Origin: a phage | DNA: 64,000 bases | Direction: 5' to 3' (one strand) | Sequence record: OZ413489.1 | Shown here: one piece after another, positions 15,809 to 49,246 of the stretch | Numbering within the stretch: the stretch's first letter is position 1 | How the letters are laid out: each line of letters starts with the position of its first letter | Translations under genes and position numbers: made by a program | The notes under the pieces: generated by a model | The model's input: only the letters and a program-made list of their open reading frames with translations | The model's database searches: none | Told to the model about the DNA's origin: nothing

Positions 15809-15841
15809 ATCTAGATGGTATCGGAGTGTCCTGGAGAGGTT

Positions 15842-18812: not shown

Positions 18813-19529
18813 ATGGCTACGCTTTATAGTGATATATTGATGGACCCACAGACAGGCGATTTGGCGATAGACAAAGGTCTTGAGTTGATAGATTCAAACC
18901 AGGTAAGTCTGCGCCAGCGCTTGTGGATGAGGTTTAATACGTGGAAGGGGAGCTGGTACTTTGACGAACTGTTTGGCTTCCCTTATATGGACTTTCTCAG
19001 TAAGAAGGTCATGAAGACTGTTCTTGATAACAAGATCATGGAAGTGGCAAGACAAGAGCCGGATGTGCTAAACATCATAAACTTCCAGTCTACCATGGAC
19101 CGAAGATCGAGAACATACCAAGCGTTCTTTGAGGTTGTTACCAAAGAGAACGAGATTGTAAGGCTGGCTTTCGTAGGTCTTGATCAGTTCACCTACCCAC
19201 AACCTGATTCTGGGACAACCTCTCTCTGTGATGATGAGGGTTGGATTAAGTGGGCTAATAAACTGTACTATCTGATCAACTTCAGATTGCCTAGAACAGG
19301 AGATGCCACATGGTGGAACCAGTATGCTGGCCCTGAGATGGAAAATCCGATCCCTGTAGGCTCTCTGTTGACTCAGGATAAAGATCTGCTGATGACTGAG
19401 GCAGAACAAACCATTAACCGCAATACCTGGACGCTTGCTCCAGATGAGCGCGAATACTCTGGTGTTATTGCTACCTCCAATGATGAGGCTATTGCCAACC
19501 AGTCTGGTCGTGCTATTGATGTTAACTAA
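18813..19529 (+). CDS. baseplate wedge protein (W/gp25-like, tentative)
   Basis: 238 aa; GAGGG RBS; N-terminal pattern resembling gp25-like wedge proteins (recollection). Confidence 0.35.
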   Translation: MATLYSDILMDPQTGDLAIDKGLELIDSNQVSLRQRLWMRFNTWKGSWYFDELFGFPYMDFLSKKVMKTVLDNKIMEVARQEPDVLNIINFQSTMDRRSRTYQAFFEVVTKENEIVRLAFVGLDQFTYPQPDSGTTSLCDDEGWIKWANKLYYLINFRLPRTGDATWWNQYAGPEMENPIPVGSLLTQDKDLLMTEAEQTINRNTWTLAPDEREYSGVIATSNDEAIANQSGRAIDVN

Positions 19530-19538: not shown

Positions 19539-20207
19539 ATGGCTGTAGCTTATCCTACAATACCAATTCCAGATCTTGAAGATGCAGAAACAGTCCTGAG
19601 TGATGACTTCTTGGTTGTCAACCAGACTGATGGGACAAGAAAGGCTAAGATTGATGATGTTGTCAACGATCTCAGCATTACTAAAATAGTCTATTTCACA
19701 GAGGGTGGTTATCTTAAGAGCAAGAAGGACTTTGCTTATGATCCAGAAACTAAGCGCTACTACACGTGGAACGGGGATTATCCTAAAATAATCCTCCCAG
19801 ACTCCACTGTAGAGGGTGCTGGGGGTGTGTCTGCAAATGCCTGGTCTGTTTTTGGTGAGCTTGCTGCAACTTCTTCTGGCAGAATAGTTGATTACGGATC
19901 TATCGGTGGTCAGCTTGATATGGATCTTGAAGTTGCGGATACCTTTAAGGTTCGACTAACTTCAAATACCACAATCTCTTTTGAAAATCAAACAGAAGGT
20001 CTTGAAGGGGTGGCGAGAACTATAACCGTATGCATTACTCAGACCTCTGGCGGCAACAAAGTCTATTGGCCTGGTAATGTTAAATGGTCCTACGGAAGAG
20101 ATCCTATCCTAACATTTACAGCTGGTGCAACAGACATTTTCAAGTTGGAAACCTACGACAACGGGTTAACTTGGTACGGGGCACTGATTATCGCAGGAGC
20201 TATCTAA
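19539..20207 (+). CDS. tail fibre N-terminal anchor-like protein
   Basis: 222 aa; N-terminus (DDFLVVNQTDGTRKAKIDDVV) is paralogous to the N-terminus of the 1479-aa fibre (DDYLVVQQPDLTRRVKIGDVV). Confidence 0.4.
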   Translation: MAVAYPTIPIPDLEDAETVLSDDFLVVNQTDGTRKAKIDDVVNDLSITKIVYFTEGGYLKSKKDFAYDPETKRYYTWNGDYPKIILPDSTVEGAGGVSANAWSVFGELAATSSGRIVDYGSIGGQLDMDLEVADTFKVRLTSNTTISFENQTEGLEGVARTITVCITQTSGGNKVYWPGNVKWSYGRDPILTFTAGATDIFKLETYDNGLTWYGALIIAGAI

Positions 20208-20208
20208 G

Positions 20209-22806
20209 ATGCGTATTCAACATAACATTGATAACGTATTTCAGATGATTGAGGGGCACAGGAAGTGCCTCGATAACAACACAGGTATTACCAACACCCC
20301 TACACAAAATAAGCTAGTAAACCCTGATGGTCTTATAGCTGCAGGGTGGGCAGGTAATAAGATAAATAATGATTGGGCAATGCATGAGTCCCAAGCTGTG
20401 TTGATTCTGGGATACATTGAAGCATACAGGGCATCGAAAAGCGATTTCTATCTGGGTAGGGCAAAAGATGCTTGGGAAGCTTACAATAGCCATCTTCTGG
20501 GTGCATATGCAGTAGAAAGTAAAATGCAAAGATTGTCCCACTACCCCCTATCCACAGATGGGGTTCCATCACATGGTGGGTTTAAAGATGTGGTGGTGTC
20601 TTTTACCAACGGTAGAGGAAAAATCCCAGCTGGATCTCCGACATGGGGAGAATACCTTGACAAGGCATTCCAAGCGTATAACGGTGTGTTAGGAAGAAAC
20701 ACTGTAGACTCTGATGTTTACGGTGGCACAGATGCTAACCCAGATTGGACAACATCCGGATTAAGTTGGTGGGTTGAGTGGTACATAGCATGGGATGGTA
20801 ACCGCTATTGGGCTAACGGTAGCATAGCCGACAGTGGTCATACGTCTGTAGAGTTCGGCACAATCCAATTACAAGATAAGGGTGTTACAGGCAGCCACAA
20901 GGTGACCTATTGTGTAAGATTACCTCAAGAGCAGGGCGGATCGGTGATACCTGCAGGATCCCCTGTAATTGTAAATCCTATAAACGTGGTTGCAGATAAT
21001 CAGGCCCCAGAGTTGGACGGGGAAGAAATGTGGTGTGACGCTTGTTATCAACTCTACACCTTGACAGGTGAGGAAAAGTATTACACCGCGTTTAAACAGT
21101 CTTACAACAAATTGCTTAATTTCAGTGATATAAACGCCTACGACAAACTGTTTAGGAAGACCACGTTGATTAAGGCACCGTTTACAGATGGTACTTGCCT
21201 TGTTGCAGGAACAGTTCCTGCCATGAGCAGGGACAGTGACGGGTATATCAATTTTAGAATGAACGCACGCCAGCCTTGCGAAATAATTCAAAAAGGGACT
21301 ACATACAAAATAGGCAGAGATGCTGAAATTGTTATGAATTTCGGAGGAGAAGGGGTTCTGTTCCAGCCACATTTCATCCTTAATGATGGCAACAATAACA
21401 AAAAACAGTACAGGATAGGGGTTCCTTTTGGAGGGGCAGAGGTAACAGAAATAGTTGCCAAGGTTACTGATTTCGTAGAGGTAGTTGGTAAAGACGGTAA
21501 TCCGTATCTCTTACCTAAAGAGGAAAACATTGTCGTAAGCGGTGGCGCTAGTGTTAGTATGCAGTATGATACCGACATTTACAACCACTCTGACAACTTC
21601 ACCCGTTGTAATATAGCAAGAGGTAAAGTAACTTTCAATTTTGGGAGAGAGATTTCTTTAAACTCAGTAACTTATCGATCAGATGATGAGATGGTAAGGG
21701 TCAAATTTCTTGACAAAGATAGGTGGTTATGGTATGCTGATCTATATGCCACTAATGGACAATGGATAACAGAAACTCTTACTCTAGGAGATTTCAAACT
21801 AGATCCGACACAACCTCATCACACCGAAGAAGAGATTAAACCTTTCTTTGCTAATCCTAAGGGGCTCACCTCTGTAGATTTCAGCCTAAGCGACAGGCAG
21901 ATAGGTAATGGCTTGTTTGATCTGTACTGCGTAAACACGCTGCCGCAGTTCTATATTGCAGATAGGGATGCTTATCTAATATGGTTTAGCGTATGGATGG
22001 CAAGCAAGACAGAATCAACCGCTAAGGTTGGTGATTGCTATGTCAGAAACTACAAGCAAGGTGCATACAGGCACACACCAGGTGTGTTCCCTGCCGGAAA
22101 GGTGATAGATAAGGAAAACTATCTCTTAGAGGAAAAGCCAAATTGGCCCTACCCTGGCATGCAATACCCAGCAGTATACTGCATGGGTGCAGAAAACATA
22201 GATCGCCATAGATTGTCAAATACAATAGGCTTTCTGTATGACGCTCAAGTCTGGTATAACAATACATTTAAGACAGAGGGTCCAGTTGCCTCACGTTATG
22301 TATGGCAGAGAGGTAATGAAGGGTTGACTGGTTGGTGGGAGATGGTAGATAACTCTAAGCTCCAGTCAAGATCTTTTGTTGCTGCGTGCCGCACAATATA
22401 TGAGCTCAAGAAACATAAAGAACCTGTTGATGAAAGACTGTTCCTGTTCTGCCAGAAATGGGCATGGTTCCTCAACAGATTCCAGTCATCTCATTCAGGA
22501 AATCTACCTACAGACTTTAACACCTCTGGGGGATATTCTTATCAGGACAGAGGAGACAGGATGTGGGTGGTAGGTGAATGGCTTGCAGGCTGCTGCTGGC
22601 TAGGTCTGTGCGGGTATTCAGAGACAATACCTCAAATAGACATTGTTGTAGAAGCCTGTATGAAGCTACTGCAAAAGCACCACTTCATCAATGGGGATAA
22701 TGTTTTAAACGGCTGCTGGGCAGTTTCTGATCCGGTGGGCTATCACTCTGGCGAAATCCTTCGCGGTCTGGGCCTTTATGCTCAATACCGTGGATTGTAC
22801 CTTTAA
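20209..22806 (+). CDS. large tail-associated protein, possible glycan-degrading enzyme
   Basis: 865 aa; Trp/Tyr-rich with enzyme-like composition; sits right after the fibre-anchor-like gene; function inferred only. Confidence 0.3.
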   Translation: MRIQHNIDNVFQMIEGHRKCLDNNTGITNTPTQNKLVNPDGLIAAGWAGNKINNDWAMHESQAVLILGYIEAYRASKSDFYLGRAKDAWEAYNSHLLGAYAVESKMQRLSHYPLSTDGVPSHGGFKDVVVSFTNGRGKIPAGSPTWGEYLDKAFQAYNGVLGRNTVDSDVYGGTDANPDWTTSGLSWWVEWYIAWDGNRYWANGSIADSGHTSVEFGTIQLQDKGVTGSHKVTYCVRLPQEQGGSVIPAGSPVIVNPINVVADNQAPELDGEEMWCDACYQLYTLTGEEKYYTAFKQSYNKLLNFSDINAYDKLFRKTTLIKAPFTDGTCLVAGTVPAMSRDSDGYINFRMNARQPCEIIQKGTTYKIGRDAEIVMNFGGEGVLFQPHFILNDGNNNKKQYRIGVPFGGAEVTEIVAKVTDFVEVVGKDGNPYLLPKEENIVVSGGASVSMQYDTDIYNHSDNFTRCNIARGKVTFNFGREISLNSVTYRSDDEMVRVKFLDKDRWLWYADLYATNGQWITETLTLGDFKLDPTQPHHTEEEIKPFFANPKGLTSVDFSLSDRQIGNGLFDLYCVNTLPQFYIADRDAYLIWFSVWMASKTESTAKVGDCYVRNYKQGAYRHTPGVFPAGKVIDKENYLLEEKPNWPYPGMQYPAVYCMGAENIDRHRLSNTIGFLYDAQVWYNNTFKTEGPVASRYVWQRGNEGLTGWWEMVDNSKLQSRSFVAACRTIYELKKHKEPVDERLFLFCQKWAWFLNRFQSSHSGNLPTDFNTSGGYSYQDRGDRMWVVGEWLAGCCWLGLCGYSETIPQIDIVVEACMKLLQKHHFINGDNVLNGCWAVSDPVGYHSGEILRGLGLYAQYRGLYL

Positions 22807-22810
22807 CATA

Positions 22811-22830
22811 GGGGGCTGTTTGCCCCCTTT
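22811..22830 (+). terminator. weak terminator-like hairpin
   Basis: GGGGGC-TGTT-TGCCCCC followed by only TTT. Confidence 0.3.
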
Positions 22831-22841
22831 CAGGAGAAAGA

Positions 22842-25800
22842 ATGGCTGATATTAAAGTTGTCAGAATTGAATCTCTTCCTGCCACTACCGCAGTGACAGA
22901 GGATGATTACCTGGTTGTTCAACAACCAGACCTGACCCGTCGTGTAAAAATTGGCGATGTTGTCCATGTGGATGGGACTGTTTCTCATGTAATCTCCTTT
23001 AAGGAAGGTGGTAAGTTAAACGGCCCAATGGATTTTGCCTACTTCGAAGAGGAAGACCTCTACCTGCGTTGGAAAGGCGAATTTCCACACACTGTTCCTG
23101 CACTATCTTCACCGTACGCTGATGGTGGGATTACTGACGCTGCATGGATGGTATATACAGATCCGTCCTTAAGGGAGGAGCTGGAATCTACCATTGGCGC
23201 ATCTATGATCATGACAGCCGAAGGGCAGTCTGTCCAGGATGTAATGGATGTTACTGTTCAGACAGCTAACGATGCTAAAGCACTTGCACAGCGTGTAGAT
23301 TTTGGTACGGTGCACACTGTAGGTGATGTTATTCACCTTGATAACTTTGTGGGTCCTGCAGTTATTGAAGAGGGAAGAACTACCAACTACCCTTCTGTAG
23401 CAGCTGGTGAAAAATTTCTGAACGGTGTGGTATCTCGTCGTGATACTACAACTGTTGATGGTATTTTCCGTGGCGCTACCACCGGAGCCATGTACACCAT
23501 TGCAGTAACCAACGGTGTAGCAACAACGAAAAGAATAGCACTTCGTGATGAATTTAAACGCCTAGAGGCAAACAACCCAACAAGAACAGTTATCCGTGCT
23601 GGAGATGATTTAAATACGGCAGGGTACTTGCAGCTTGATGCAACAGGCCGTTGGGGTATGTGGAACCAACAAACAGCTTCGTGGCAACCTCTTGCTATAG
23701 AGCAAGGCGGCACAGGGGCTAGAGATGCCGCTGGAGTCCGTATCAATATCGGTGCTTTCTATAAGCAACGTGCAGCCCTTGAGCCAAATTTCAATATCAA
23801 TAACTTGACTGGTAATCAGGATGGTGTATACTACCAGCCAATGACTGCTTATGCAACTGAGGCAAATGGTTACCCTGCAGGTTCTGGTGCTGGTCACTTG
23901 ATTGTTTGGCAGAACAATGCTAACGGAGGTACAGGTTGTCGTCAGGAATACTATCCATTCTCTAACGTAGATGTTTGGTATTTGAGAACCTATCAGGCCA
24001 ACACAAATCAGTGGACTGCATGGCAGCCGATGGTCAGACCTCGTAACGATGATACCTTTAGATCGCACATCGGTCTCGGGTCTAGAAATACCCCTACCTT
24101 CGGGCACCTTTACCTGTCTCAAAGCACTTCTGAGGTTAAGTTGCCATCAGGTATTCTCCATGGGGATAAATACGGCGCTGACGGTGCCCTTGAGCATGGG
24201 TATAGGATCTACTCTGAGGTAAGAAACGACAATAAGGCTTGGCTGACAATCCACCTGCACAAAGGTGCAAAAGGATCTGAAACTCATAAATATTTAGGTT
24301 TCCGCGAAGACGGCGTATTAGACTGCCCTAAATATATGCAGGTTGGGGATCTTACTGGTCAGCTGACAAACTGGGGACTTGGAGAATGGATTCGTAGTTC
24401 AGGAGCAGAAAGAGGCTTCTGGGGGTCCAAGAAAGCCGCCAAGATGGTTATCTGGGATGGTGGGATGGACGAATCCGGTAACGGCACTCTGGAATGGGGT
24501 GTTTATAACAACCGGAAGGCCAAGTGGGAACCTCTACCTCAAGCCGCAGGTGGCACTGGGGCTACAACTTTAGCAGATGCTCAGAATCTGTTCAAAGTTC
24601 CTGTAGCGGCAGGCGTAAAAGACTTCTTAATACTGCCAAGAACTGCAGGAATGGAAGATGGGAAATACTACCCAATCATCGTTAGAACAGATCCGTATTA
24701 CGCCCCTTCGACAGGTACAGATATTACCATAGTCACCAGGTCTTCATCTGGAAATGACCCTATGAACTGTGCCACCCTGCAGTGTCACTATAGAACTGGC
24801 GGCTGGACGGACAGGGGAGACTCTTTCTACGGGGTAGTAAATTTCTACCAGAATGAAAAAGCACTTCTTGGGATGATTGCTCCAACAAGGGGTAAACAAG
24901 AGTATGTTGCTTTCTATGTGGAGGCTCGTGCTTTCCCTGTCAGCATATACGCAAGTAGAAATGTTGTCGAAGTGTTTACCAGAGAGCAAGATTACCAGGT
25001 TGGGACTGTAACAGACAATCAGAATGGGGTTAAGTTCGTTGCACCTCTTCAGTCAGCAGATTTGAATCTTGCTATTCTTGGAGATAACAACACCAATACC
25101 AGACCTATTGTCGACTTCAAAGGTACTTCAGGGTTCTACACTGGGGGCGGCACACAGTGGCACTATATAGGCACTGCTGAACGCTATGCTGTGATGAGCA
25201 AAATGAATATGCCAAAAGTCGAGCTATGGGCAGACGGTCTTGACTATTTGTGCTACGGCAGTCCTAGAAAGGCGTTATTCTCTAATGCAGGATTCCAGTG
25301 TGCATCCGATGGGACAGAGGATCTGACTAACGGTACGTTTACCTCTAAATGCGGTAATGGTGCTGGTCTCAAAGGTCAGGCAGAGTTCAGATCTACTCCA
25401 GAGGCTGGTCAAGTTATTGTTCGTGATGTTGTAGGTTCTGCTCACAGATTCTACAACTTCAACAAAGATGGCACTTTCTCAGCTCCTGGTGGTTTTGTAT
25501 GCCACACAGGTGCAGACTGGAACAACCAGTTCGGGAATAACAACCCTTCTAAAATAATGGCTGGTAACGTCAACGGACCTGAAGGTTCCATGGTTGTAGC
25601 AGGGTTGTCGGTTGGTTTTTCTGGAAACTACGCTTTCCAGATGGCAGGTCGTTTAGACCAGCTGTATACTCGTTCCATAGAGCAGGGAAACCACAGAGCG
25701 TGGAACAAAGTTATTCAGCACCGTGGTCAAGGGTTGGGAACTAATGACCTTAACGACTACAAGGCAGATCGTGAAGGGATTTACCATCAAGAGGCAAATG

Positions 25801-27281
25801 CCAACGCCACAGCGGAAAGAAATTACCCACCAGGACAGCAGATGGCTGGTACGCTGATCGTTCTTAGAAACTCCGCTAACGAAGGAACAGGTTGTATCCA
25901 GATATATAAAATGTATCTTGGTGGAACATGGGAAAGGTATTACAATAACCTTGGCAGCGGAATGGCTTGGAGTCCTTGGAAGAGAACAAGCTTCCCAGAA
26001 AACACAACTGCTCCAGTTATGCCTGACTTGTGGTTGCCTTTAACCTCTAACCTAAAACCTGCATTGGGTGAAGGTGAGATGGTCTTCTCCAGACCTTCCA
26101 CAGCAACCTATTTCACTAAGCGGGGTGTTATGGCTGTTGCACAAGCAAACCAACCACGTTTTGAAAGAGATGGGTTGCTTATCGAGGGGCAAAGGACAAA
26201 CCTCATGCTCAACAGTGAGGACCCAAGCAAGTGGGGTGCACAGCAAGCGATTACTGTCGGTAGCACTGTAACAAATACTAACGGCACAAAAGGTGCAAGA
26301 TTTACAGTAAACACCGCATCCGGTGTAGAAACAACAGCGTTAAACCTTGCCACTGTTCCAGCCACTAGGGGTGCCGATGTGACAGGTGCTGAGAAATTCT
26401 GTACTGGGTCTATTATTGCAAGGGGAGGTAAAGCGAACCAGAGATTACGTGTAAGATTCGACATGTATGACGGATCCACCACAGTATTCCAAGGTGACGC
26501 TTATGTTAACCTGTCAACACTTGAAGTTAAAACAACAGGGGATGCAGCTGGGAGAATTAAAGTAAAAGCTGAGAGATGGCAAACAGCCGGACCTGCTTGG
26601 GTAAGGATTGCCGCTACGTTTGAGGCAGCGGCCTCTGACAAGAATATCGGTTGCCAGTTCCAGATTGCCCCGCCGGAGAGTTCTCAACATGCCGTAGGGG
26701 ATTGGGTTGACGTTGCAATACCTCAGTTTGAGTTGGGATCTTGTGAGTCCTCGTTTATCCCTACAGGGTCTTCACCTGTAACCAGGGCGGCAGATCTTTG
26801 TAAATTCCCAATGACGGATAACCTAGCGCCCAGACCATTCACTATCGCCGCTACGGTTGATGCCAACTGGAGAGGCTGGGGCAAAGCTCCTAACGCAGCC
26901 CCTAGGGTTATTGATACAGAGGGTCATCAATCCGGTGCTTTATTTATCATGGGGTTTGGCTCTGCAACAAATATTGCGGAGGACGGTTATCCATACTGTG
27001 ATATTGGAGGGTCAAACAGACGTGTTTACGAGATGGCTAAAGCCCGTAAATTGAAAATTGGGTTCAGGATAAAAGGGGACGGTAAAACATGCTCTTTTGC
27101 TAACGGATTGGTAAGTACGGAAACACAGTCTTCTTGGGAGTTCCTGGCAGGAGGCGCTTTCCTCCGCATTGGTGGTCAAACGGCGACAGGTGAAAGACAC
27201 CTATTTGGTCATATTAAGGACATAAGAGTTTGGAACTCTGCGTTGACAGATACTCAACTCATGATGGAGAGTGTTGAATAA
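22842..27281 (+). CDS. long tail fibre protein
   Basis: 1479 aa; fibre anchor-like N-terminus; two GGTGA motifs; duplicated about 60-aa module; C-terminal lectin/LamG-like segment (recollection). Confidence 0.5.
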   Translation: MADIKVVRIESLPATTAVTEDDYLVVQQPDLTRRVKIGDVVHVDGTVSHVISFKEGGKLNGPMDFAYFEEEDLYLRWKGEFPHTVPALSSPYADGGITDAAWMVYTDPSLREELESTIGASMIMTAEGQSVQDVMDVTVQTANDAKALAQRVDFGTVHTVGDVIHLDNFVGPAVIEEGRTTNYPSVAAGEKFLNGVVSRRDTTTVDGIFRGATTGAMYTIAVTNGVATTKRIALRDEFKRLEANNPTRTVIRAGDDLNTAGYLQLDATGRWGMWNQQTASWQPLAIEQGGTGARDAAGVRINIGAFYKQRAALEPNFNINNLTGNQDGVYYQPMTAYATEANGYPAGSGAGHLIVWQNNANGGTGCRQEYYPFSNVDVWYLRTYQANTNQWTAWQPMVRPRNDDTFRSHIGLGSRNTPTFGHLYLSQSTSEVKLPSGILHGDKYGADGALEHGYRIYSEVRNDNKAWLTIHLHKGAKGSETHKYLGFREDGVLDCPKYMQVGDLTGQLTNWGLGEWIRSSGAERGFWGSKKAAKMVIWDGGMDESGNGTLEWGVYNNRKAKWEPLPQAAGGTGATTLADAQNLFKVPVAAGVKDFLILPRTAGMEDGKYYPIIVRTDPYYAPSTGTDITIVTRSSSGNDPMNCATLQCHYRTGGWTDRGDSFYGVVNFYQNEKALLGMIAPTRGKQEYVAFYVEARAFPVSIYASRNVVEVFTREQDYQVGTVTDNQNGVKFVAPLQSADLNLAILGDNNTNTRPIVDFKGTSGFYTGGGTQWHYIGTAERYAVMSKMNMPKVELWADGLDYLCYGSPRKALFSNAGFQCASDGTEDLTNGTFTSKCGNGAGLKGQAEFRSTPEAGQVIVRDVVGSAHRFYNFNKDGTFSAPGGFVCHTGADWNNQFGNNNPSKIMAGNVNGPEGSMVVAGLSVGFSGNYAFQMAGRLDQLYTRSIEQGNHRAWNKVIQHRGQGLGTNDLNDYKADREGIYHQEANANATAERNYPPGQQMAGTLIVLRNSANEGTGCIQIYKMYLGGTWERYYNNLGSGMAWSPWKRTSFPENTTAPVMPDLWLPLTSNLKPALGEGEMVFSRPSTATYFTKRGVMAVAQANQPRFERDGLLIEGQRTNLMLNSEDPSKWGAQQAITVGSTVTNTNGTKGARFTVNTASGVETTALNLATVPATRGADVTGAEKFCTGSIIARGGKANQRLRVRFDMYDGSTTVFQGDAYVNLSTLEVKTTGDAAGRIKVKAERWQTAGPAWVRIAATFEAAASDKNIGCQFQIAPPESSQHAVGDWVDVAIPQFELGSCESSFIPTGSSPVTRAADLCKFPMTDNLAPRPFTIAATVDANWRGWGKAPNAAPRVIDTEGHQSGALFIMGFGSATNIAEDGYPYCDIGGSNRRVYEMAKARKLKIGFRIKGDGKTCSFANGLVSTETQSSWEFLAGGAFLRIGGQTATGERHLFGHIKDIRVWNSALTDTQLMMESVE

Positions 27282-27613
27282 TGAATATTTTTACCCTTGG
27301 ATTCACTGACAGGGAGGACTTTAACGGTTTCATGGATGAAATCGGCTTTTATGAGAATGAGGTGTTGCAAAACACCCTTCTTGTAGAGGTTGTCGGGTTC
27401 ATTTACACAGAGACTGGAGACACTTATGAGGCCGAAGATGAGTTTGGCAACATGGTTGTCTACCCAGTTTGCGAGAAAAGTGAATTGTTTTATGTTAACG
27501 TTCTGGCTCTAAACGGGGATGCAGAAAACATCATCTCTAAAAGCGGAAAAGTTGTAGATCCGATAAGGTTGAACATGTTCGACCCATCAGTATCCACCTT
27601 GGAAGCACTTTAA
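27281..27613 (+). CDS. small acidic protein, candidate fibre chaperone
   Basis: 110 aa; start overlaps fibre stop (TAATG). Confidence 0.3.
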   Translation: MNIFTLGFTDREDFNGFMDEIGFYENEVLQNTLLVEVVGFIYTETGDTYEAEDEFGNMVVYPVCEKSELFYVNVLALNGDAENIISKSGKVVDPIRLNMFDPSVSTLEAL

Positions 27614-27620
27614 AGTATTG

Positions 27621-27648
27621 CCCTCGCTTCGGCGGGGGTTTTTTGTTT
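27621..27648 (+). terminator. rho-independent terminator
   Basis: CCCTCGC-TTCG-GCGGGGG then TTTTTTGTTTG. Confidence 0.7.
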
Positions 27649-27651
27649 GTA

Positions 27652-27680
27652 TTGCGTATTAACTTAAAATCTGGTAAAAT
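27652..27680 (+). promoter_or_regulatory. sigma70-like promoter, TTGCGT-17-TGgTAAAAT
   Basis: -35 27652-27657, -10 27675-27680 preceded by TGG. Confidence 0.45.
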
Positions 27681-27711
27681 AACTATCATAATTGTTTAAC
27701 CTGGAGGCATA

Positions 27712-28302
27712 ATGTTTTTATGGGAAAGGCCTAGATACCTTCCAGATATTAGATTAGAGTTGCTGGCAGATATTGTCACGTTTAAAAGTCCGTTTACAGG
27801 TAAAACGCAAAAAGTAACCTATGCCACGCCTAACTGGAAAGGCACTTTGACGGTCTCCAATATCAGCGAGTCACAGTTACTAGAGCTTAAGAGCTTTGTT
27901 GATCAGGTGTATAAAGATGGGAACATCTTTCTTATTAAAACTTACGGTCACTCGGTAACAGCTAACGAGCCAATCGCCCTTGGGCCTACTGGTAACGACG
28001 ATTTTTTGAAGACTGTTGGGTGGGAGCCAAACAGAGACATAGCCAGAGCCGGGGATAAAATATCTGTCAATGATGAATTGAAAGTGGTAACAGCTCCAGT
28101 GCGTAGCGATGGTGTTGGGTCTGCTGTTATAGGCATATCTCCAAGACTTAGAAAACCTATTGCCGCAGGGGACACCATGAAGATAATAACTCAATCTCCG
28201 AAGGGTAGGTTTCATATCAGAGATATTTATAAAATTAAGCAAAAAGTCGATGCTATGCAAAAAGGTGATAATATAGTTATCAACTTCTTTGAGGATTTCT
28301 AA
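27712..28302 (+). CDS. distal tail protein (lambda M / GTA g12-like, tentative)
   Basis: 196 aa; GGAGG RBS; first of four genes ending in a J-like host specificity gene. Confidence 0.3.
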   Translation: MFLWERPRYLPDIRLELLADIVTFKSPFTGKTQKVTYATPNWKGTLTVSNISESQLLELKSFVDQVYKDGNIFLIKTYGHSVTANEPIALGPTGNDDFLKTVGWEPNRDIARAGDKISVNDELKVVTAPVRSDGVGSAVIGISPRLRKPIAAGDTMKIITQSPKGRFHIRDIYKIKQKVDAMQKGDNIVINFFEDF

Positions 28303-28303
28303 G

Positions 28304-28855
28304 ATGATCAGAGCGCCATTAGATAATTTATTTCTTGAAAAGCTGGAGCTTGATGGTGTTGAGATCTTAATTGCTGCAAAGCTGGAGCTACCGACAGGAA
28401 CTGTCAGGGTGTGCTCAGGCACTGGTGTTGTAGTAATTGAGGGGCAACATTTTATAGGGATAGGTGGATCAGCAACATTAACCGCTGTGTCTGAGAAAGA
28501 TGCCACCAACTTCGGATCTGTGGTAGCGACATTGAACGGGTTTGATCCTAAGTATGTGGGTGATCTGCTAAAGACTGAGTATTCTGGTTGTCGTGCCACG
28601 TTGTACATTACCGCTATGGAGAATGGTCTGCCTGTTACAACTAATGGCTTGTTTGACGGCCTTATAACAGATATGGCTATTCAGACAGGTGAGAATAGCG
28701 CTTTGTCCATATCCATCTCTTCCATCTTTAACAGTTGGTTAAGAGGTTTTCCTTATCGGTACACGGAGGAAAGCCACAGCTCAAGAAACGATAATGACAG
28801 ATTTTTTAAATATGTGGATCAGGTGGCGAGCCGCCCGATCATTTGGGAGGTTTAA
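28304..28855 (+). CDS. distal tail protein (lambda L / GTA g13-like, tentative)
   Basis: Track ORF 28289-28855; ATG 28304 with GAGGA RBS (183 aa); assignment by order only. Confidence 0.3.
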   Translation: MIRAPLDNLFLEKLELDGVEILIAAKLELPTGTVRVCSGTGVVVIEGQHFIGIGGSATLTAVSEKDATNFGSVVATLNGFDPKYVGDLLKTEYSGCRATLYITAMENGLPVTTNGLFDGLITDMAIQTGENSALSISISSIFNSWLRGFPYRYTEESHSSRNDNDRFFKYVDQVASRPIIWEV

Positions 28856-29280
28856 TGAGCACACACCCTCGTTTAGTGGATTGGCAAGAAAGATTGTGGA
28901 AAGTGTTTGACGAAGAGGCCACCATACCTTTTGAATGGGGATTCCACGATTGTTGCACCTTTGCAGCTAAGTGTGTTGATGCCCAATACGGAACAGATTT
29001 TCTTTCTAACTTCGAAGGAACGTATAAAACAGAGTTGGAAAGCAAAAGATGGTGCATGCTTCGTTTCAAAACCACACACCTGCCTACTATTTTTGATCTC
29101 TTTATGACTCGGCTGGATACTCCTAAACAGGTTCAGCGTGGAGATATTGTCATTTTCGAAGGTCTGAACGGGCTCACCGCTGGTGTGTTCTGGAACAACC
29201 AGATTTGGGCGAAAGGTGATAAAGGGGTCTTTATGTTCGACATGAAAGATTCTATCGTTGTTGATGTCTGGAGGTATTAA
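28855..29280 (+). CDS. NlpC/P60-like tail peptidase (tentative)
   Basis: Track ORF 28843-29280; ATG 28855 (141 aa); WGFHDCCTF and GDIVIFEG resemble phage NlpC/P60 Cys-His peptidases located before J-like genes. Confidence 0.35.
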   Translation: MSTHPRLVDWQERLWKVFDEEATIPFEWGFHDCCTFAAKCVDAQYGTDFLSNFEGTYKTELESKRWCMLRFKTTHLPTIFDLFMTRLDTPKQVQRGDIVIFEGLNGLTAGVFWNNQIWAKGDKGVFMFDMKDSIVVDVWRY

Positions 29281-32200
29281 TGCCAATTGCAATGATTGAT
29301 AACATCGTTGCTTCTGCAAGATCTTCAAGTTATGACTGGAACGCATCCAAGGCAGCTCTGGCTGACAGCCTGAACACTGTGACCACCAGAACTTTGGATA
29401 AGATTTTTGAGGGCAACAAATCTTACAGAAGTCAGCAAGATAGACAAAAGCTTCTCAGATCTTCTGCTGCACCTTGCTCTGTAGTGTATGGGAAGACACG
29501 CACATCTGGATTGCTTGCGTTTTTGGAGCAGGATAGCGACAGAACCCTCCATTGTGCTATTGTTCTTGCCAATCACCCTCTGGAAGGTATAGAAGATATA
29601 CTCATCGACGGTAATCCTATTTCCTCGTATGGGGATTTGGTATCGTGGGAGCTACATAACGACAGAAAAACATCGGATCCTTTCATGGGTACACACTGCC
29701 CATCGTGGTCACCAGACATGATAGGTAGAGGGATCAGTTGGCTACGTGCCAGCTTCAGGTTTGACCCTAACAAGTTCCCTTTTGGGTTGCCAAACGTTAC
29801 ACTCGTCAAGGTTGGTAAAAAATGCTATGATCCCCGTATCAGTAAAGAGGTGTATACCAATAACGCGGCCTTGGTGATCCTAGACTATTTAAGAACGTAC
29901 CTTAAATGTCCTGACGAAACCATCAACTGGGAGTCCTTCAAGGAGGCTGCCAACATATGCGACGAGGCGGTAAAAAACGCGGACGGAACCAGTGAGCGCC
30001 GTTACACCATTAACGGTGAGTTCGACATGGATGAGGCTCCAGCAAGTATTATGGCAGAAATGCTGAAAGCTTGTGGTGCAGATCTCAGCTATGTAGCTGG
30101 TAAGTATGGACTGCTGGTAGGTGCATACTATGGCCCGGCAACAATGACACTAAGTGAGGATTGTGTCTGCGGTGAGGTTAAGATCTATCCTGAAGCCTCA
30201 TTTGACAAAAGATCTAACACAATAACTGGCAGATTCACTAGTCCGACCAAAGGGTATTCTGAAACAGATTTTCCATCAGTGTTTGTCCCAGAGTGGATAG
30301 AGAAGGATGGAGAAAGAAAGATAATCGATATAGACTATCGCTTTGTTACCAGCCCTTATCAAGCTCAGCGTGTTTCTGCAATATTCTTAAGACGTGCCAG
30401 AGCTGGCAGGATTATTGAAGTCACCTGCAATATGCGAGGTTTTAAATTTAAGCCTGGTCGTTACGTCACAATGGATCTTCCAAGTATTGGTATAGTGGGC
30501 CAAGAAATGAGGGTTCTTGAATGGGAGTTCACCAAAAAGGGCGGTGTCAAGGTAAAACTTCGTCAAGATGCTAAAGAGTGGAATGATGCCACAGGGCAAC
30601 TTCCGGATTCCGGCGATGTAGATATTCCGATATCCCCGTCCGGTGTAGCTCAGCCGCAAAACTTCAGATACTCCGTTCTCCAAGCTGGGGAAGTAACTCA
30701 CGGTGTTTTGGCCTGGGACAACGTTGGGACTTACGCTCAAAATATTGTGCAGGTAAGAAAGAACGGAGAGATTGTTTGGACAGCACAGACAGTTGAGCAG
30801 TTTGTCAGAGTAGAAGGTTTGACAAAAGGGTCATACACAGCAACCGTGGTTGCAACATCTTATAAAGGTGGTGTATCTCCAGAAGCGTATTGTGAGTTTA
30901 ACATTCAGGCACCTGAAGCTCCGGTTTCTGTAGAGGTTAAGCAAGGATACTTTGCTATCACCTTGATTCCGCATAGTAGGGATTTAGCAAGTGTTAGCAC
31001 CCAGTATGACTTTTGGACATCCGGTATGACAAGGTTGCCCGACACCAGTGATGCAACCGTTACTTCAAACGCCACCCGTATGGGTGTTGGTTCAACTTGG
31101 ACATCTGAAGGTCTGCAGAACGATAAGGTTTATTATTGGTATATTCGAACCACAAACGCTTTTGGTAGTTCTCAGTTTGTAGAATGCGCTGCACGCTGCT
31201 ACACCTCTATTGAGGATTTGATGCCTCAGATAGATGCTGAATTTAAAAAGACAGAAACTTATAAAGAGTTGATGAGCACTTTAGATTCATCTATTGAAGA
31301 GGTTGAAAATAGGGTCACAGAACTTAACAGGTACATGGATGGTAGGGTAGATGAGGCATTCCAGCAACTTGGAGACAGAATAGGTGCGGTAGTTACAGAG
31401 ACAACTCAGAAGTTTGAGGATGTCAATGGCAATATCACAGCGCTGGATAGGAAACTTGTTGCTGCACAGAACAAGTTCACCAACGATCTGAACACTGAAA
31501 GTGGAAGATTGGCATCCCTGATTGAGACAACCAATAAAGCAACTACTGATCTTCTGAACAAAAAGACAGAGGCTTTAGATGAGAAATTGGTTGCCGCCAA
31601 AGGTGAGCTGGTAGAGCAGATAGAGGGAGTTGAGAGCGGGTATTTGGCCGGAGATAAAACTCTGGATGGTAAGATCAATACTCAGAGAACAGAACTTGAC
31701 GCAAGCATCTTGAGCACTAACCAGGCCACTGTGGATCTTTTGAACAGGACATCTGAAACTCTGGATCAAAAGATTAGTCAGACAAACGCGACGGTATCTA
31801 AAAACTATACCACCCTTGACGGCAAGATAACTACCGCAAAAACTGACCTCAACACCTTGATTGCCAATACCAACAAGGCCACCACTGACTTGTTGAATCA
31901 GAAAACATCTGCACTGTCAGAGCAGATAACTTCTGCACGTGGGGAGATTTCTACCAACAAGCAAGCGATTGATGCTTTGGATGGAAAACTGACCTCCACA
32001 AAAACAGCGCTGGATGCTACAATTTCCGATACCAATAAAGCCACTGTGGACCTTATCAACGGCACAGCGTCAGCTATTCGTCAAGAACTTGCTGTTGCTA
32101 AGCAGGAGATCATTGATGATGTTGGGGATGTGTCTGAGATCAGGGCTGCAGTAGCTACAACATCTAAGGCTGTAACCGACTTAGAGGGTAAAGTAAATGC

Positions 32201-33119
32201 TCAATGGGGCACAAAAATACAGGTAGACTCCGCAGGGAATAAATATGTTGCAGGTATTCAGTTGGGGATGGAAGGGTCTGGAGGCCAAGTTCAATCCTAC
32301 TTCATGGTTAGCGCAAACAATTTTGCGGTATACAACCCTGGCAATGGAACAGCAACCCTTGCTTTCGCAATCAAGAACAACCAAGCGTTCTTGAAAGACG
32401 CTTTTATAGAGAATGGCACGATCTCCTCTGCCAAGATTGCACAAGAAATTTCGTCAAACAACTACGATGGCAACGGGTACCATAAATACGGTTGGTATAT
32501 TAACAAGAACGGGCACGCCCAATTTATGGATGTGTGGGTGAAAGGCAACATCAACGCCAGTTCTGGTAACTTCACAGGGGCAGTTAACGCCACTAGTGGT
32601 ACCTTCCGTGGGGATGTTTATGCCAATAATGGTAGCTTTAGAGGCACCATAGATGCAACCGGAGGTACCTTCCGTGGTCGTGTAGAAGCTTCTGTTATCC
32701 GCGCTAACCAGTTCGAAGGTGCAATTGTTGCACACAGGACTTACGGAGATTGTGCTCCAGTATATAACTCCCAGCAAAGGGTTTGCCGTTGGAGGTGGAG
32801 ATACGTAGATAACGTTTCAGGTCAGGGTAAGAACGTAACATTCTTCTTTAAACTGAATGGTACTCTTGCCAGCTCCCAACTGAATGCATGGATAGCTGGT
32901 CATCAGATCCTTGCTGGCAAGAAGTATTTTAACGACAACAACGGCATGTGCGCGGTAGGGATAACAGGTCTTGGTGAACAAACTATAGACATTGTTATCG
33001 AGATTTACACACCGTGGTCAACGTCGAGCGTGACAGGTGTCACAATTTCCTGTCCTACTGTGATAGTAAGTCGTTCAAACTCTAGCTTCCAGGGACCTTG
33101 GAACGAGTCTCACGACTAA
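29280..33119 (+). CDS. host specificity / central tail fibre protein (lambda J-like)
   Basis: 1279 aa; N-terminal region resembling J-type tail proteins, FN3-like segment, four tandem coiled-coil repeats, C-terminal Gly-rich beta-helix-like repeats. Confidence 0.5.
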   Translation: MPIAMIDNIVASARSSSYDWNASKAALADSLNTVTTRTLDKIFEGNKSYRSQQDRQKLLRSSAAPCSVVYGKTRTSGLLAFLEQDSDRTLHCAIVLANHPLEGIEDILIDGNPISSYGDLVSWELHNDRKTSDPFMGTHCPSWSPDMIGRGISWLRASFRFDPNKFPFGLPNVTLVKVGKKCYDPRISKEVYTNNAALVILDYLRTYLKCPDETINWESFKEAANICDEAVKNADGTSERRYTINGEFDMDEAPASIMAEMLKACGADLSYVAGKYGLLVGAYYGPATMTLSEDCVCGEVKIYPEASFDKRSNTITGRFTSPTKGYSETDFPSVFVPEWIEKDGERKIIDIDYRFVTSPYQAQRVSAIFLRRARAGRIIEVTCNMRGFKFKPGRYVTMDLPSIGIVGQEMRVLEWEFTKKGGVKVKLRQDAKEWNDATGQLPDSGDVDIPISPSGVAQPQNFRYSVLQAGEVTHGVLAWDNVGTYAQNIVQVRKNGEIVWTAQTVEQFVRVEGLTKGSYTATVVATSYKGGVSPEAYCEFNIQAPEAPVSVEVKQGYFAITLIPHSRDLASVSTQYDFWTSGMTRLPDTSDATVTSNATRMGVGSTWTSEGLQNDKVYYWYIRTTNAFGSSQFVECAARCYTSIEDLMPQIDAEFKKTETYKELMSTLDSSIEEVENRVTELNRYMDGRVDEAFQQLGDRIGAVVTETTQKFEDVNGNITALDRKLVAAQNKFTNDLNTESGRLASLIETTNKATTDLLNKKTEALDEKLVAAKGELVEQIEGVESGYLAGDKTLDGKINTQRTELDASILSTNQATVDLLNRTSETLDQKISQTNATVSKNYTTLDGKITTAKTDLNTLIANTNKATTDLLNQKTSALSEQITSARGEISTNKQAIDALDGKLTSTKTALDATISDTNKATVDLINGTASAIRQELAVAKQEIIDDVGDVSEIRAAVATTSKAVTDLEGKVNAQWGTKIQVDSAGNKYVAGIQLGMEGSGGQVQSYFMVSANNFAVYNPGNGTATLAFAIKNNQAFLKDAFIENGTISSAKIAQEISSNNYDGNGYHKYGWYINKNGHAQFMDVWVKGNINASSGNFTGAVNATSGTFRGDVYANNGSFRGTIDATGGTFRGRVEASVIRANQFEGAIVAHRTYGDCAPVYNSQQRVCRWRWRYVDNVSGQGKNVTFFFKLNGTLASSQLNAWIAGHQILAGKKYFNDNNGMCAVGITGLGEQTIDIVIEIYTPWSTSSVTGVTISCPTVIVSRSNSSFQGPWNESHD
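31520..32100 (+). repeat. tandem 150-190-nt repeat units inside J-like gene
   Basis: Four diverged copies starting near 31530, 31716, 31869 and 32021 (ACCAATAAAGC... / TNKATxDLLN at protein level). Confidence 0.5.
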
Positions 33120-33127
33120 CCTTTAAA

Positions 33128-33153
33128 GCCCCGCTTCGGCGGGGTTTATTTTT
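33128..33153 (+). terminator. rho-independent terminator
   Basis: GCCCCGC-TTCG-GCGGGG then TTTATTTTT. Confidence 0.7.
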
Positions 33154-33162
33154 ATGCTCAGA

Positions 33163-33191
33163 TTGACTATTGTTACAAAATTTGGTAAAAT
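33163..33191 (+). promoter_or_regulatory. sigma70-like promoter, TTGACT-17-TGgTAAAAT
   Basis: -35 33163-33168, -10 33186-33191 preceded by TGG. Confidence 0.5.
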
Positions 33192-33224
33192 ACCTTGTAG
33201 AGATTTTCATACCGGAGGAGTGAC

Positions 33225-34715
33225 GTGGCTAAGTATGGATTGACAGAGGCTGGTTTCGTTATACCAACCCTAAATGACCTAATCGTTGAAACTAAGCAAA
33301 GCCTGATCCGTGCTTTTGGCGAAAACTTCAACGTACAGAGTAACTCCGTTGCAGATAAGCTGACCACTATCTTCAACGAGCGAGAGTATCAACTTATTCT
33401 TATGGCAGCATCTGTATACGCATCACAGACGCTGTATGGGGCAGAAGGTATTTACCTAGATGAGCTTCTTGGAAGACAGGGTATTTACCGAAGAGGCCGT
33501 TCTAAATCATCAGGTACCTGCCAGTTGACAATCAACACAACTGTGCCGTACAATATGATTTATGATTCCAAAACTTATACACTGGATAGTGGCAACTTTG
33601 TTCTTAGCAATGATGTGCAGGTGGCAGGGAATCTTATTGCCCACAGAATAAATGCTCCAGACCTAAGGATTGGTAAATACAACTTTCAAATCACCAACCA
33701 GACAGATGGAAGTATCAAAACAAAAAGTCTGGTTTTAACAGATAAGTCTCTGGACTCTTCTGATCTGCCAAGCTTTTACGGAGAGATTAAGCAGTTCATT
33801 GTCGATAATACAACCCTGTTGAACGACGATTTGATTCAGATCGATATGTTGACAGGAACGTTGTGGATAGGGTACAATTCGAATCTTGATCAAGTTGGAC
33901 TTAATAGTAGGGTAGATTTCAGAGTATCCCCGATTGTAGGGGAAAGAACTATCACACTGGATGTTATCGCTAACGAGGCTGGTGAGCTGTCAAGAGAAGC
34001 AGAAACCGTGACAACAATGTCACCTACTCCTAGTGGATTTATCAAGCTTACCAACCGAGAAAGATTCAATGAGGGCAGGGATGTTGAGAAAGACTCAGAG
34101 TATCGCTTAAGAGCTTCCAGCACAAAACAGTTAACATCTAAGGCTACCCGTCCTGCAATCCTTAGCGCTGTAAGCGAGGTGAAAGGTGTTGAGAAAGTGA
34201 GAGTGTTCTCCAACAACACCGATAAAACTGATGCTAAAGGTATACCTCCTTACAAGTTCCAAGTGGTTGTGTTTGGTGGTGCAACGGAAGACATTTGCCA
34301 AGCACTTTACCAAACTATAGCCTGTACGAACAGGACTTATGGTAATATTTTCTACGATGTCACTACATCTGATGGTCAAACTGAAAGAATTTATTACTCC
34401 AAGGCAAATACCTACCGCCTAGATGTAAGAATTACCTACTCCGGTGCCGCACTTTCCACAACCGAAAAAGATGCCATTGTAGAGGCTCTTTTGCAGGTTG
34501 TTAACGGACTGGATGTTGCAGATACGTTGTATAATATCCAATTGGTCGGCGCTGCATCTGCTGCTGTATCAATAGGCAGATTTAATAGACTGGTAATTCA
34601 AGTTAAACCAGTAGGAGCTTCTGATGAAGCTTACACTACAAACGATATTGTTGCGAACATGACCGAGGTGTTTGACCTCGACGAAAGTAATATAACTTTC
34701 CAACAAACTATTTAA
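33225..34715 (+). CDS. baseplate J-like protein
   Basis: 496 aa; GTG start with GGAGGAG RBS; N-terminus (YGLTEAGF...ADKLTTIF...ASQTLYGAEGIYLDELLGRQGIYRRGRSKSSG) matches the Baseplate_J family pattern as recalled. Confidence 0.55.
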   Translation: MAKYGLTEAGFVIPTLNDLIVETKQSLIRAFGENFNVQSNSVADKLTTIFNEREYQLILMAASVYASQTLYGAEGIYLDELLGRQGIYRRGRSKSSGTCQLTINTTVPYNMIYDSKTYTLDSGNFVLSNDVQVAGNLIAHRINAPDLRIGKYNFQITNQTDGSIKTKSLVLTDKSLDSSDLPSFYGEIKQFIVDNTTLLNDDLIQIDMLTGTLWIGYNSNLDQVGLNSRVDFRVSPIVGERTITLDVIANEAGELSREAETVTTMSPTPSGFIKLTNRERFNEGRDVEKDSEYRLRASSTKQLTSKATRPAILSAVSEVKGVEKVRVFSNNTDKTDAKGIPPYKFQVVVFGGATEDICQALYQTIACTNRTYGNIFYDVTTSDGQTERIYYSKANTYRLDVRITYSGAALSTTEKDAIVEALLQVVNGLDVADTLYNIQLVGAASAAVSIGRFNRLVIQVKPVGASDEAYTTNDIVANMTEVFDLDESNITFQQTI

Positions 34716-48363: not shown

Positions 48364-48564
48364 TTAGTAATACTCCCAACATGCCCCATCTTCAGACGGC
48401 TTGACGCGCTTACCTTTATGGTCAACATAGGTATAGCCACAACCTTCACAAATAACAGGTGCTGCATAACCTTCCTTCCACTGCTTCTCCGTGATCAATC
48501 CTTTCAGATCTCCGCAGTCACGACCAAACAACTCTTCAGAACAGTCTTTACAAAAATCAGCCAT
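48364..48564 (-). CDS. small Cys-rich zinc-ribbon-like protein
   Basis: 66 aa; CxxC...C...CxGC pattern (CKDC, CEGCG). Confidence 0.35.
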   Translation of the reverse strand: MADFCKDCSEELFGRDCGDLKGLITEKQWKEGYAAPVICEGCGYTYVDHKGKRVKPSEDGACWEYY

Positions 48565-48633
48565 CTCTATCAGTCTCCATATTTAACCAATCTATATTAC
48601 ATATTGCCGAAGAAACAGTATTTCATTTCATTA

Positions 48634-48852: not shown

Positions 48853-48853
48853 A

Positions 48854-49183: not shown

Positions 49184-49216
49184 TTTTTGTTACTCCGTTC
49201 TGTATCTGTGATAATG

Positions 49217-49246
49217 AGAATAGCAAACTGGGGTGTGTGCTGTCAA
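49217..49246 (-). promoter_or_regulatory. sigma70-like promoter on minus strand, TTGACA-18-TATTCT
   Basis: Reverse complement of 49241-49246 is TTGACA; of 49217-49222 is TATTCT. Confidence 0.35.

Follow-up and report, generated by a model that had tools for sequence, protein, structure and literature searches.

We have analyzed a window of 64,000 nucleotides from the phage sequence record OZ413489.1 (the whole stretch, one strand, 5' to 3'; all positions are counted from its first letter) and focused on positions 19539-33119. In this region, eight genes, all on the + strand, separate the gene of the sheath initiator (18813) from a Baseplate_J wedge gene (33225), and the last four of them (27712-33119) form the cassette in question. 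Sequence comparison supports the homology of these four genes to a complete siphovirus tail-tip set, in which a Dit-like protein, a gpL/DUF2163-type hub, a K-like protein of predicted NlpC/P60 fold and a lambda-J-like protein would be encoded one after the other. On balance, we lean towards the view that the cassette was captured from a siphophage and that its products assemble a tip-like complex at the periphery of the baseplate or on the fibre network, as an added adhesin. Modular exchange of adsorption devices is of a known kind; what would be new is the exchange of a whole tail-tip set between tail types.

By sequence match of 19539-33119, the window belongs to a Vequintavirus, i.e. an rV5-like myophage of E. 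coli. The region matched more than 100 GenBank Vequintavirus genomes over its full length at 93-97% identity (e.g. EmilHeitz/Bas49 and APECc02), so the eight-gene block is real and conserved. Its G+C content and strand skew are uniform throughout, and the J-like protein is 100% identical to a protein of phage AlexBoehm. A first-pass annotation of this DNA, made from the letters alone, had placed eight open reading frames (ORFs) here, flanked by a P2/Mu-type baseplate. All eight were found at those coordinates on the + strand, with products of 222, 865, 1479, 110, 196, 183, 141 and 1279 amino acids (aa) when the ATG starts annotated in related records are used, and the nature of the flanks was confirmed, 18813 being a sheath-initiator homologue and 33225 and 34727 wedge proteins.

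Synteny with siphophage tail-tip genes

Outside Vequintavirus, the closest relatives of the J-like protein are host-specificity proteins of Queuovirinae siphophages, to which its residues 48-1124 are 53-55% identical. Seuratvirus SLUR26 has, directly after its tape-measure gene, four genes of 194, 194, 144 and 1040 aa (VAY28113-VAY28110), in an order and orientation identical to those of the four cassette genes. Using BLASTP, we obtained identities to the SLUR26 counterparts of 32% for the Dit-like protein (9e-30), 40% for the L-like protein (2e-47), 45% for the K-like protein (6e-47) and 54% for the J-like protein (0.0). The same four-gene layout is present in Pseudomonas phage psageK9 and in two Vibrio siphophages. 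We also scanned IMG/VR with the profile of DUF6950, the family of the K-like protein, and inspected the 80 best loci: a J-like gene adjoined in all of them, and an L-like gene too in 79. The contigs did not exceed 74 kb and usually showed a tape-measure-sized ORF upstream of the module, and homologues of the sheath, tube, hub and wedge proteins of the window were found in none of these 80 best loci.

Compared with the Queuovirinae (SLUR26), the window has the same four genes in the same order and with near-equal sizes, and part of the neighbouring lateral fibre shaft is shared as well. The surroundings differ, however. Instead of lying directly after the tape measure of a non-contractile tail, the cassette follows a 1479-aa fibre gene and a 110-aa gene, so that it stands between a fibre and a wedge gene of a contractile baseplate with no tape-measure or tube gene ahead. 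Besides, the siphophages have a receptor-binding-protein locus after J, which is missing here.

The first-pass annotation had likened the block to the M/L/K/J genes of lambda or to g12-g15 of a gene transfer agent (GTA). The homology and colinearity with siphovirus distal-tail genes stood up: the 1279-aa protein matched J families and a J structure in profile searches, and all four genes are colinear with the tip genes of SLUR26. Of the two comparisons, the one with lambda is less close. Lambda has five genes (gpM-gpL-gpK-gpI-gpJ), while only four lie between the terminators here and gpI is missing; the K-like protein is a single 141-aa domain without the MPN/JAB domain, against 199 aa for gpK; and sequence searches detected no likeness to lambda in the N-terminal half of J. 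Regarding RcGTA, roseophage R4C and JBD30, which have a g12-g15/DUF2163 hub, the hub protein of the cassette consists of the N-terminal domain only, with 183 aa versus 267-272. We take the sizes of the cassette genes to be similar to those of RcGTA g12-g15. Overall, the cassette is of the four-gene GTA/JBD30/Seuratvirus type rather than of the lambda five-gene type.

The four cassette proteins

The first gene (27712-28302, + strand) encodes the 196-aa protein, which matched phrog_1302 'distal tail protein' at 5e-50. The top match in the Protein Data Bank (PDB) of a profile built from 25 sequences was a distal tail protein (8hqz_H) with a non-significant E value of 0.27, and no Pfam match appeared, permissive thresholds included. 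Only by its position and its PHROG label, together with that non-significant PDB match, do we call it a putative Dit.

The second gene (28304-28855, + strand, from its ATG; a TTG ORF opens at 28289) encodes the 183-aa protein, a tail-tip hub candidate of the gpL/DUF2163 (GTA g13 N-domain) type. Its predicted model is the tube-like beta-sandwich of the gpL/DUF2163 (PF09931) hub fold, and some of its homologues carry the name DUF2163 in UniRef. Searching for these homologues with the single sequence returned 3 near-identical proteins, and it was the alignment queries that gave the family. In lambda gpL, four cysteines bind a [4Fe-4S] cluster; in contrast, no cysteine is found among the invariant or near-invariant columns of 39 L-like homologues, and the protein is thus without conserved cysteines able to hold an Fe-S cluster.

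The third gene (28855-29280, + strand, from its ATG; a TTG ORF opens at 28843) occupies the position of gpK or GTA g14 and encodes the 141-aa DUF6950 protein. An NlpC/P60-like motif had been noted in the block at first pass, and the predicted model of this protein agrees with it, showing a papain-like NlpC/P60 fold. Among 40 family members, Cys33 is invariant within the motif F-x-W-G-x-x-D-C, but none of the histidines is: the site following R-G-D-x-V, which by motif mapping would be where NlpC/P60 enzymes have their His, is occupied by T, S, C, G or V.

Against PDB chains, nothing significant was found with single sequences or 5-sequence profiles of these three small proteins. When small profiles were aligned by hhalign to single lambda gpM, gpL and gpK sequences, only the Cys motif of K aligned, with a probability of 1.4%. 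In NCBIfam, and in Pfam at permissive thresholds, the small proteins matched no lambda M or L family, and the Dit-like and K-like proteins gave no significant sequence-profile match to GTA families.

The fourth gene (29280-33119, + strand) encodes the 1279-aa lambda-J-like tail-tip/central-fibre protein, homologous to rV5 gp37, which was recognized by Pfam, NCBIfam, PHROG and PDB searches. It is laid out as a hub (~48-470), Ig/FN3 domains (493-652), a coiled coil (~650-960), a tail-tip fibre domain (957-1097) and a distal domain (1100-1279). In Pfam it matched Ig_J_second (1e-30), Phage_Tail_Tip (1e-38) and Ig_J (2.6e-5, under the gathering score); in NCBIfam, lambda_TipJ at 4e-45, yet far under the 'exception'-type cut-off of that family; in PHROG, 'central tail fiber J' at 5e-164; and in PDB, the lambda J chain 8iyk_J at 1.6e-28. 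Further matches were the J-like proteins of phage T1 and an F-type pyocin. At the N-terminus, Pfam Phage-tail_3 reached only E=0.1, and residues 48-470 are 50-70% identical to the Seuratvirus tip protein. For rV5 gp37, COG4733 and HHpred matches to the Mu-type hub 3CDD have been reported (PMC3606486).

The coiled-coil shaft of J is ~210 residues longer than in Seuratvirus J, and compared with SLUR26 the distal domain has diverged. The J protein of APECc02 is 80 aa shorter than that of the window and 100% identical to it over residues 1-600 and 1000-1279. The shaft (31230-32160 of the window, aa ~650-960) is the sole part that has diverged between the alleles, with 44-75% identity to APECc02. 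With hub and tip identical and divergence limited to the shaft, recombination appears to have been confined to it. A motif T-N-K-A-T-x-D-L-L-N recurs along the shaft, and no tandem DNA repeat lies beneath this repetitive protein sequence. All Vequintaviruses share at least 93% identity over the distal 180 residues, which are only faintly similar to the J ends of Queuovirinae.

A lineage-variable slot between sheath initiator and wedge

To place the cassette among relatives, we compared, phage by phage, the junction where the sheath-initiator gene gives way to the gene of the Baseplate_J wedge, hereafter the slot. It holds no genes in phiTE (Certrevirus), where only a terminator is present, and none in W70 (Septuagintavirus), one in Aeromonas phage 2L372D, three in PVP-SE1 (Seunavirus), six in PaulScherrer (phi92-like) and eight in Vequintavirus, as seen in the window. 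The first-pass view that extra genes had been inserted in a baseplate cluster, for which it proposed an indel comparison, therefore holds comparatively, as the same junction carries 0, 1, 3, 6 or 8 genes. Across the genomes compared, the sheath-initiator/wedge junction is a lineage-variable slot, or hot spot, for adsorption genes.

Using tblastn, the 222- and 865-aa proteins proved common to PVP-SE1 and the phi92-like phage (34-43% identity), and so did the Tail_spike_N anchor at the N-terminus of the 1479-aa fibre. At the loci of the relatives compared, no counterpart was found of the 110-aa gene or of any of the four cassette genes. The window shares with the multivalent apparatus of phi92, PVP-SE1 and rV5-like phages the same core and the same stacking of fibres or tailspikes with Tail_spike_N-type adaptors in or after the baseplate operon; unlike it, phi92 and PVP-SE1 are without the siphovirus Dit-hub-K-J set, phi92-like phages having no J cassette at this locus, and their published descriptions cover lateral fibres and depolymerases. 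In the papers searched, no complete set of this kind is described as belonging to the multivalent apparatus. In the phage database, the J-like protein was present at 60% identity or more in 117 records, and the wedge gene at 95% or more, which defines Vequintavirus in the strict sense, likewise in 117. Given these equal counts, the four-gene block appears confined to one genus among the relatives examined.

Transcription signals, selection and presence in the virion

Two predicted transcription units make up the eight-gene block. The first, a fibre unit, ends in a strong intrinsic terminator at 27620-27639 (+ strand), in which an 8-bp stem that includes 6 G-C pairs carries a TTCG loop and precedes a T6 tail. 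Next comes the promoter-like site of the cassette at 27652-27681 (+ strand; TTGCGT, 17 nt, TGGTAAAATA). After the cassette comes a second strong intrinsic terminator at 33126-33147 (+ strand; 9-bp stem with 6 G-C pairs, TTCG loop, T-rich tail) and then a promoter-like site for the wedge genes at 33163-33192 (+ strand; TTGACT, 17 nt, TGGTAAAATA). Exact copies of the decamer TGGTAAAATA number only four in the 64 kb, all of them between genes on the + strand (9039, 12560, 27672 and 33183), and allowing one mismatch there are 20 matches against 5.8 expected by chance. All four sites have TTGnnn 17 nt upstream and lie in gaps ahead of structural operons, so TTGnnn-17 nt-TGGTAAAATA is probably the phage's promoter type for structural operons, with an extended -10 element. 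Since it shares this site, the cassette would use the same kind of promoter as the other structural operons of the phage. With its own predicted promoter and terminator, the second unit (27652-33147) is a self-contained cassette.

The eight genes are intact in all six Vequintavirus alleles compared, in which dS reaches ~0.8. Mean dN/dS values for the cassette were 0.022 (Dit-like), 0.006 (L-like), 0.056 (K-like) and 0.075 (J-like), and those of the fibre unit 0.018, 0.045, 0.059 and 0.097 for the 222-, 865-, 1479- and 110-aa proteins, respectively. The cassette is under strong purifying selection. Pseudogenisation of the block was considered and rejected, as all genes are intact and dN/dS ranges from 0.006 to 0.10. 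A divergent lineage (E. coli assembly JZQG01000004, Logan contigs) also retains the cassette, with 73% identity in J and 61% in K.

The first-pass annotation had named absence from virions as grounds for refuting its reading; for the J-like homologue, presence is on record, as mass spectrometry of rV5 virions detected gp37 (PMC3606486). In the accessible parts of Table S5 of that work, gp37 is listed with 4 peptides and 5 spectra, including one strong tryptic peptide, and the analysis is shallow (19 proteins, with 15 spectra for the sheath, 4 for the tube and 9 for the gp41 fibre; PMC3606486). From the region studied here, these parts include gp37 and gp41, and for several of the listed loci the evidence consists of non-tryptic peptides with low scores (PMC3606486). 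The main text names gp42, gp43, gp36, gp45 and others as detected, none of which is shown in the accessible parts of the table (PMC3606486).

A possible peripheral tail tip and its alternatives

We propose that an ancestor of Vequintavirus captured the cassette from a Queuovirinae-like E. coli siphophage, a direction suggested by the fact that every siphophage needs the set while the sister genera of Vequintavirus are without it. The four products would assemble in siphovirus fashion: the L-like protein and the N-terminal part of J would together form a trimeric hub that caps a ring of the Dit-like protein. For its part, the K-like protein may be an assembly factor or a minor component rather than a canonical peptidase, because its family keeps the Cys but conserves no His. 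Neither tape measure nor tail tube would take part in building the resulting tip-like particle, which would be mounted at the baseplate periphery or on the fibre network, and the long coiled-coil shaft of J would hold the conserved distal domain toward a conserved envelope receptor. A lengthened shaft, a conserved tip and the lack of a receptor-binding-protein locus after J would fit a fibre that spans a bulky baseplate and contacts a conserved target beyond it. In this way a siphovirus-style adhesin would be added to the myovirus's own fibres, and the phage may have the hybrid apparatus with several independent receptor-binding devices that was suggested at first pass. Both the location of the complex on the virion and its binding target are what we infer. 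As a stronger version, an autonomous tip complex present in several peripheral copies could serve as a second, siphovirus-style irreversible adhesin, e.g. for a conserved outer-membrane component; we put this forward as tentative.

Several points weigh against a peripheral tip complex. A Dit ring normally docks on the tail tube and encloses the C-terminus of the tape measure, and no substitute docking partner has been identified for the Dit-like ring. The Dit fold of the 196-aa protein is itself putative, its best PDB match being the one at E=0.27. Cryo-electron microscopy (cryo-EM) of Bas49 and Bas54 located three fibres only, and not the J-like protein (PMC12143355), and in the accessible parts of the rV5 mass-spectrometry table the three small cassette proteins are absent, with the J-like one alone listed (PMC3606486). 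The known Vequintavirus receptors, enterobacterial common antigen (ECA)/N4 glycan receptor (NGR) and the outer core of lipopolysaccharide (LPS), are attributed to other fibres, so there is no unexplained receptor calling for the module. Finally, absence of the cassette from other large myophages was judged from sampled hit lists and four loci.

One could argue that the cassette consists of re-purposed parts. According to this explanation, only the J-like trimer is structural, and the hub domain of J, the Dit-like and the L-like proteins are adaptors that clamp J to a wedge or to the 865-aa arm protein; no ring-shaped tip complex would form, and the K-like protein would be a chaperone that stays out of the virion. 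This would account for gp37 being the one cassette protein in the accessible part of the rV5 mass spectrometry (PMC3606486), for the missing His in the K-like family, and for the lack of any tube or tape measure that a Dit ring could bind, and the authors of RBPseg regard the protein as just an elongated fibre whose N-terminus resembles that of central fibres. However, alignments of the Dit-like and L-like proteins to those of siphophages run over the full length without large indels, and no other proteins of the block are as constrained (dN/dS 0.022 and 0.006), which fits conserved interfaces with multiple partners. Moreover, with 15 spectra for the sheath and 4 for the tube in the accessible data, the mass spectrometry is too shallow to prove absence. 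We regard re-purposing as doubtful, though it is the strongest competitor of a peripheral tip complex.

Alternatively, the cassette could form a true central fibre on the tail axis, under or around the spike, which would give the virion a tip like that of a siphovirus. In all siphophage tails solved so far, J, gpL-type hubs and Dit rings lie on the axis, and the spike and the J-like protein are both trimers. But the phage has a full axial set of its own, with a Dit_like-domain tube initiator, a hub and a phi92-type spike; cryo-EM of relatives that possess these axial proteins but not the cassette shows a free piercing spike; and a J complex in that place would obstruct the piercing tip. In the accessible part of the rV5 table, the 5 spectra of gp37 against 9 of the gp41 fibre are also weak evidence against a six-fold rarity. 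An axial position is thus very unlikely. Lastly, that the block is a passive, non-functional or selfish remnant of illegitimate recombination with a siphophage is effectively excluded: terminators bracket it in a moron-like manner and sister genera without it have working baseplates, but its four genes are intact in six divergent alleles (dN/dS 0.006-0.075, dS up to 0.8), it occurs in every one of ~117 Vequintavirus records, its promoter is of the phage's own type and its gp37 is found in virions.

What a peripheral tip complex would add can be seen against previous work. The multivalent 'Swiss-army-knife' apparatus of phi92 and rV5-like phages is already well known, and over 100 genomes contain the genes discussed here, which automated annotation names 'central tail fiber J', 'tip attachment protein J' or 'distal tail protein'. 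According to the BASEL paper it is unclear which genes encode which rV5-like fibre (PMC8594841), with which the Bas49/Bas54 paper agrees (PMC12143355); the latter remarks on a beta-sandwich, 'common in central tail fibers', at the N-terminus of one Vequintavirinae fibre (PMC12143355). In the 2026 structure of phi92, fibre II was not identified. Among open-access papers and preprints, we found none in which the four genes are regarded as a captured tail-tip cassette or the question of its mounting is raised. For a J-type or tail-tip module in Vequintavirus, this open-access literature gave only automated annotations and one remark on a 'central-fibre-like N-terminus', and 'DUF6950' was not mentioned in the papers and preprints searched.

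If 27712-33119 is viewed as one transcription unit, four auto-annotations that stood apart become one object open to testing. The questions are then whether Dit, hub and J can assemble without tube and tape measure, where they would dock on a six-fold contractile baseplate and whether they add a receptor specificity. The rV5-like phages are among the E. coli phages most often isolated and used in therapy, and the BASEL phages Bas47-Bas54, which are amenable to genetics, have already been put on cryo-EM grids. There is also a bearing on host-range engineering, namely the moving of whole tip modules between tail types. Should an autonomous peripheral tip be real, it would represent a new way of assembling and using a tail-tip complex, and a natural capture of a whole-machine domain between tail types; should the cassette be just another lateral fibre with recycled adaptors, it would be a tidy case of modular exchange and nothing more.

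The fibre unit upstream of the cassette

The first gene of the slot (19539-20207, + strand) encodes the 222-aa fibre-adaptor protein, corresponding to rV5 gp43, with matches to Pfam Tail_spike_N (PF18668; 2e-10) and phrog_7760 (8e-120). Its homologues are 41% identical in PVP-SE1 and 43% identical over the C-terminal half in a phi92-like phage, and phiTE has none. It is followed by the 865-aa tail protein (20209-22806, + strand; rV5 gp42, phrog_2871 'tail protein'), which is 34-35% identical to PVP-SE1 gp049 and PaulScherrer bas60_0025. The enzyme-like label given to it at first pass is unsupported: sequence searches of Pfam, NCBIfam and PDB returned no match and no recognizable domain.

The 1479-aa lateral fibre (22842-27281, + strand) has a Tail_spike_N (PF18668) anchor (1e-9), a mosaic shaft and a GTA_spike_fiber/Laminin_G-like distal part. 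Within the mosaic, residues 523-958 are 32% identical to the side tail fibre of Seuratvirus SLUR26, and residues 1113-1317 match the NCBIfam GTA_spike_fiber domain. N-terminal PDB matches to phage tail fibre and tail proteins were also obtained, and the occurrence of Tail_spike_N at the N-terminus of both a fibre and a small adaptor resembles the branched adaptor systems of the CBA120 TSP/phi92 type. The start of the 110-aa gene (27281-27613, + strand; phrog_1361, function unassigned) overlaps the stop of the fibre gene, to which it is translationally coupled.

An alternative fibre allele of 1265-1272 aa, ending in Peptidase_S74 and without the 110-aa gene, is found in rV5 (gp41) and in the divergent lineage of JZQG01000004. 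The 110-aa gene accompanies only the 1479-aa allele and is missing where the fibre ends in the self-cleaving S74 chaperone domain; for this reason its product is probably an assembly factor for the 1479-aa allele. The best explanation for the first unit (19539-27613) is a branched-fibre set consisting of an adaptor, the 865-aa arm protein, an exchangeable fibre and its 110-aa companion.

Fibre alleles (either 1479 aa accompanied by the 110-aa gene or ~1270 aa ending in S74) and J-shaft alleles (1279 or 1199 aa) were found in all four combinations, which argues against direct contact of the fibre tip with the cassette. As the fibre gene lies in a tape-measure position, we also considered the 1479-aa fibre as a tape-measure substitute with its C-terminus in the Dit-like ring, and rejected it because fibre and J-shaft alleles combine freely while the Dit-like and L-like proteins stay constant.

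The core baseplate and other observations

Around the slot, the P2/Mu/phi92-type simple contractile baseplate cluster is complete. The tape measure (13400-15736) is followed by the phage's own tube initiator (15815-16726; Pfam Dit_like, 2.5e-22), hub (17119; phrog_196) and phi92-type spike (18123). The sheath initiator, of the gp25/W type, forms the left border of the slot (18813-19529, + strand; phrog_4233, phrog_120), and the Baseplate_J-type wedge protein the right one (33225-34715, + strand; Pfam Baseplate_J 4e-9, phrog_6), with a second wedge protein (34727) in the same cluster. The first wedge protein is 60% identical to PVP-SE1 gp047 and 51% to phiTE_234. The cryo-EM structures of phi92 and phiTE include models of homologues of these core proteins, and since those baseplates are complete without it, the tail-tip module of the eight-gene slot is accessory. 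The genome encodes two Dit-type proteins, namely the native axial tube initiator and the putative one in the cassette.

The sheath initiator is 57% identical to phiTE_233, 71% to PVP-SE1 gp051 and 25% to its phi92-like homologue, and sheath initiators are present in cryo-EM structures as phi92 gp139 and as the phiTE homologue. It measures 238 aa, and its alignments end at residue 204 with PVP-SE1 (205 aa) and at residue 171 with phiTE (177 aa); the Vequintavirus protein thus has a C-terminal extension of ~35-65 aa beyond these homologues. As the phiTE sheath initiator contributes to binding of the long fibre in cryo-EM, this extension might, by analogy, be a docking site.

Downstream of the wedge genes, 35413-37485 encodes a 690-aa fibre with N4 gp65-like domains (NCTSP_N and TIM-barrel_NCTSP), the proposed ECA/NGR-binding protein. 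Its gene lies 3' of the wedge genes here and within the variable slot in the phi92-like PaulScherrer (42% identity), a difference in position which indicates that fibre genes moved across the wedge genes. Farther on, the coding strand and the GC/AT skew turn minus for ~7 kb (~48400-55300), starting after a 1878-aa fibre gene (42680-48316), and afterwards revert. No tRNA genes were found in the window. Finally, 18-22 GenBank records titled 'Campylobacter phage' (MG0656xx, stated host C. jejuni) are 96-97% identical to 19539-34715; they look like mislabelled entries or E. coli phages carried in Campylobacter phage preparations.

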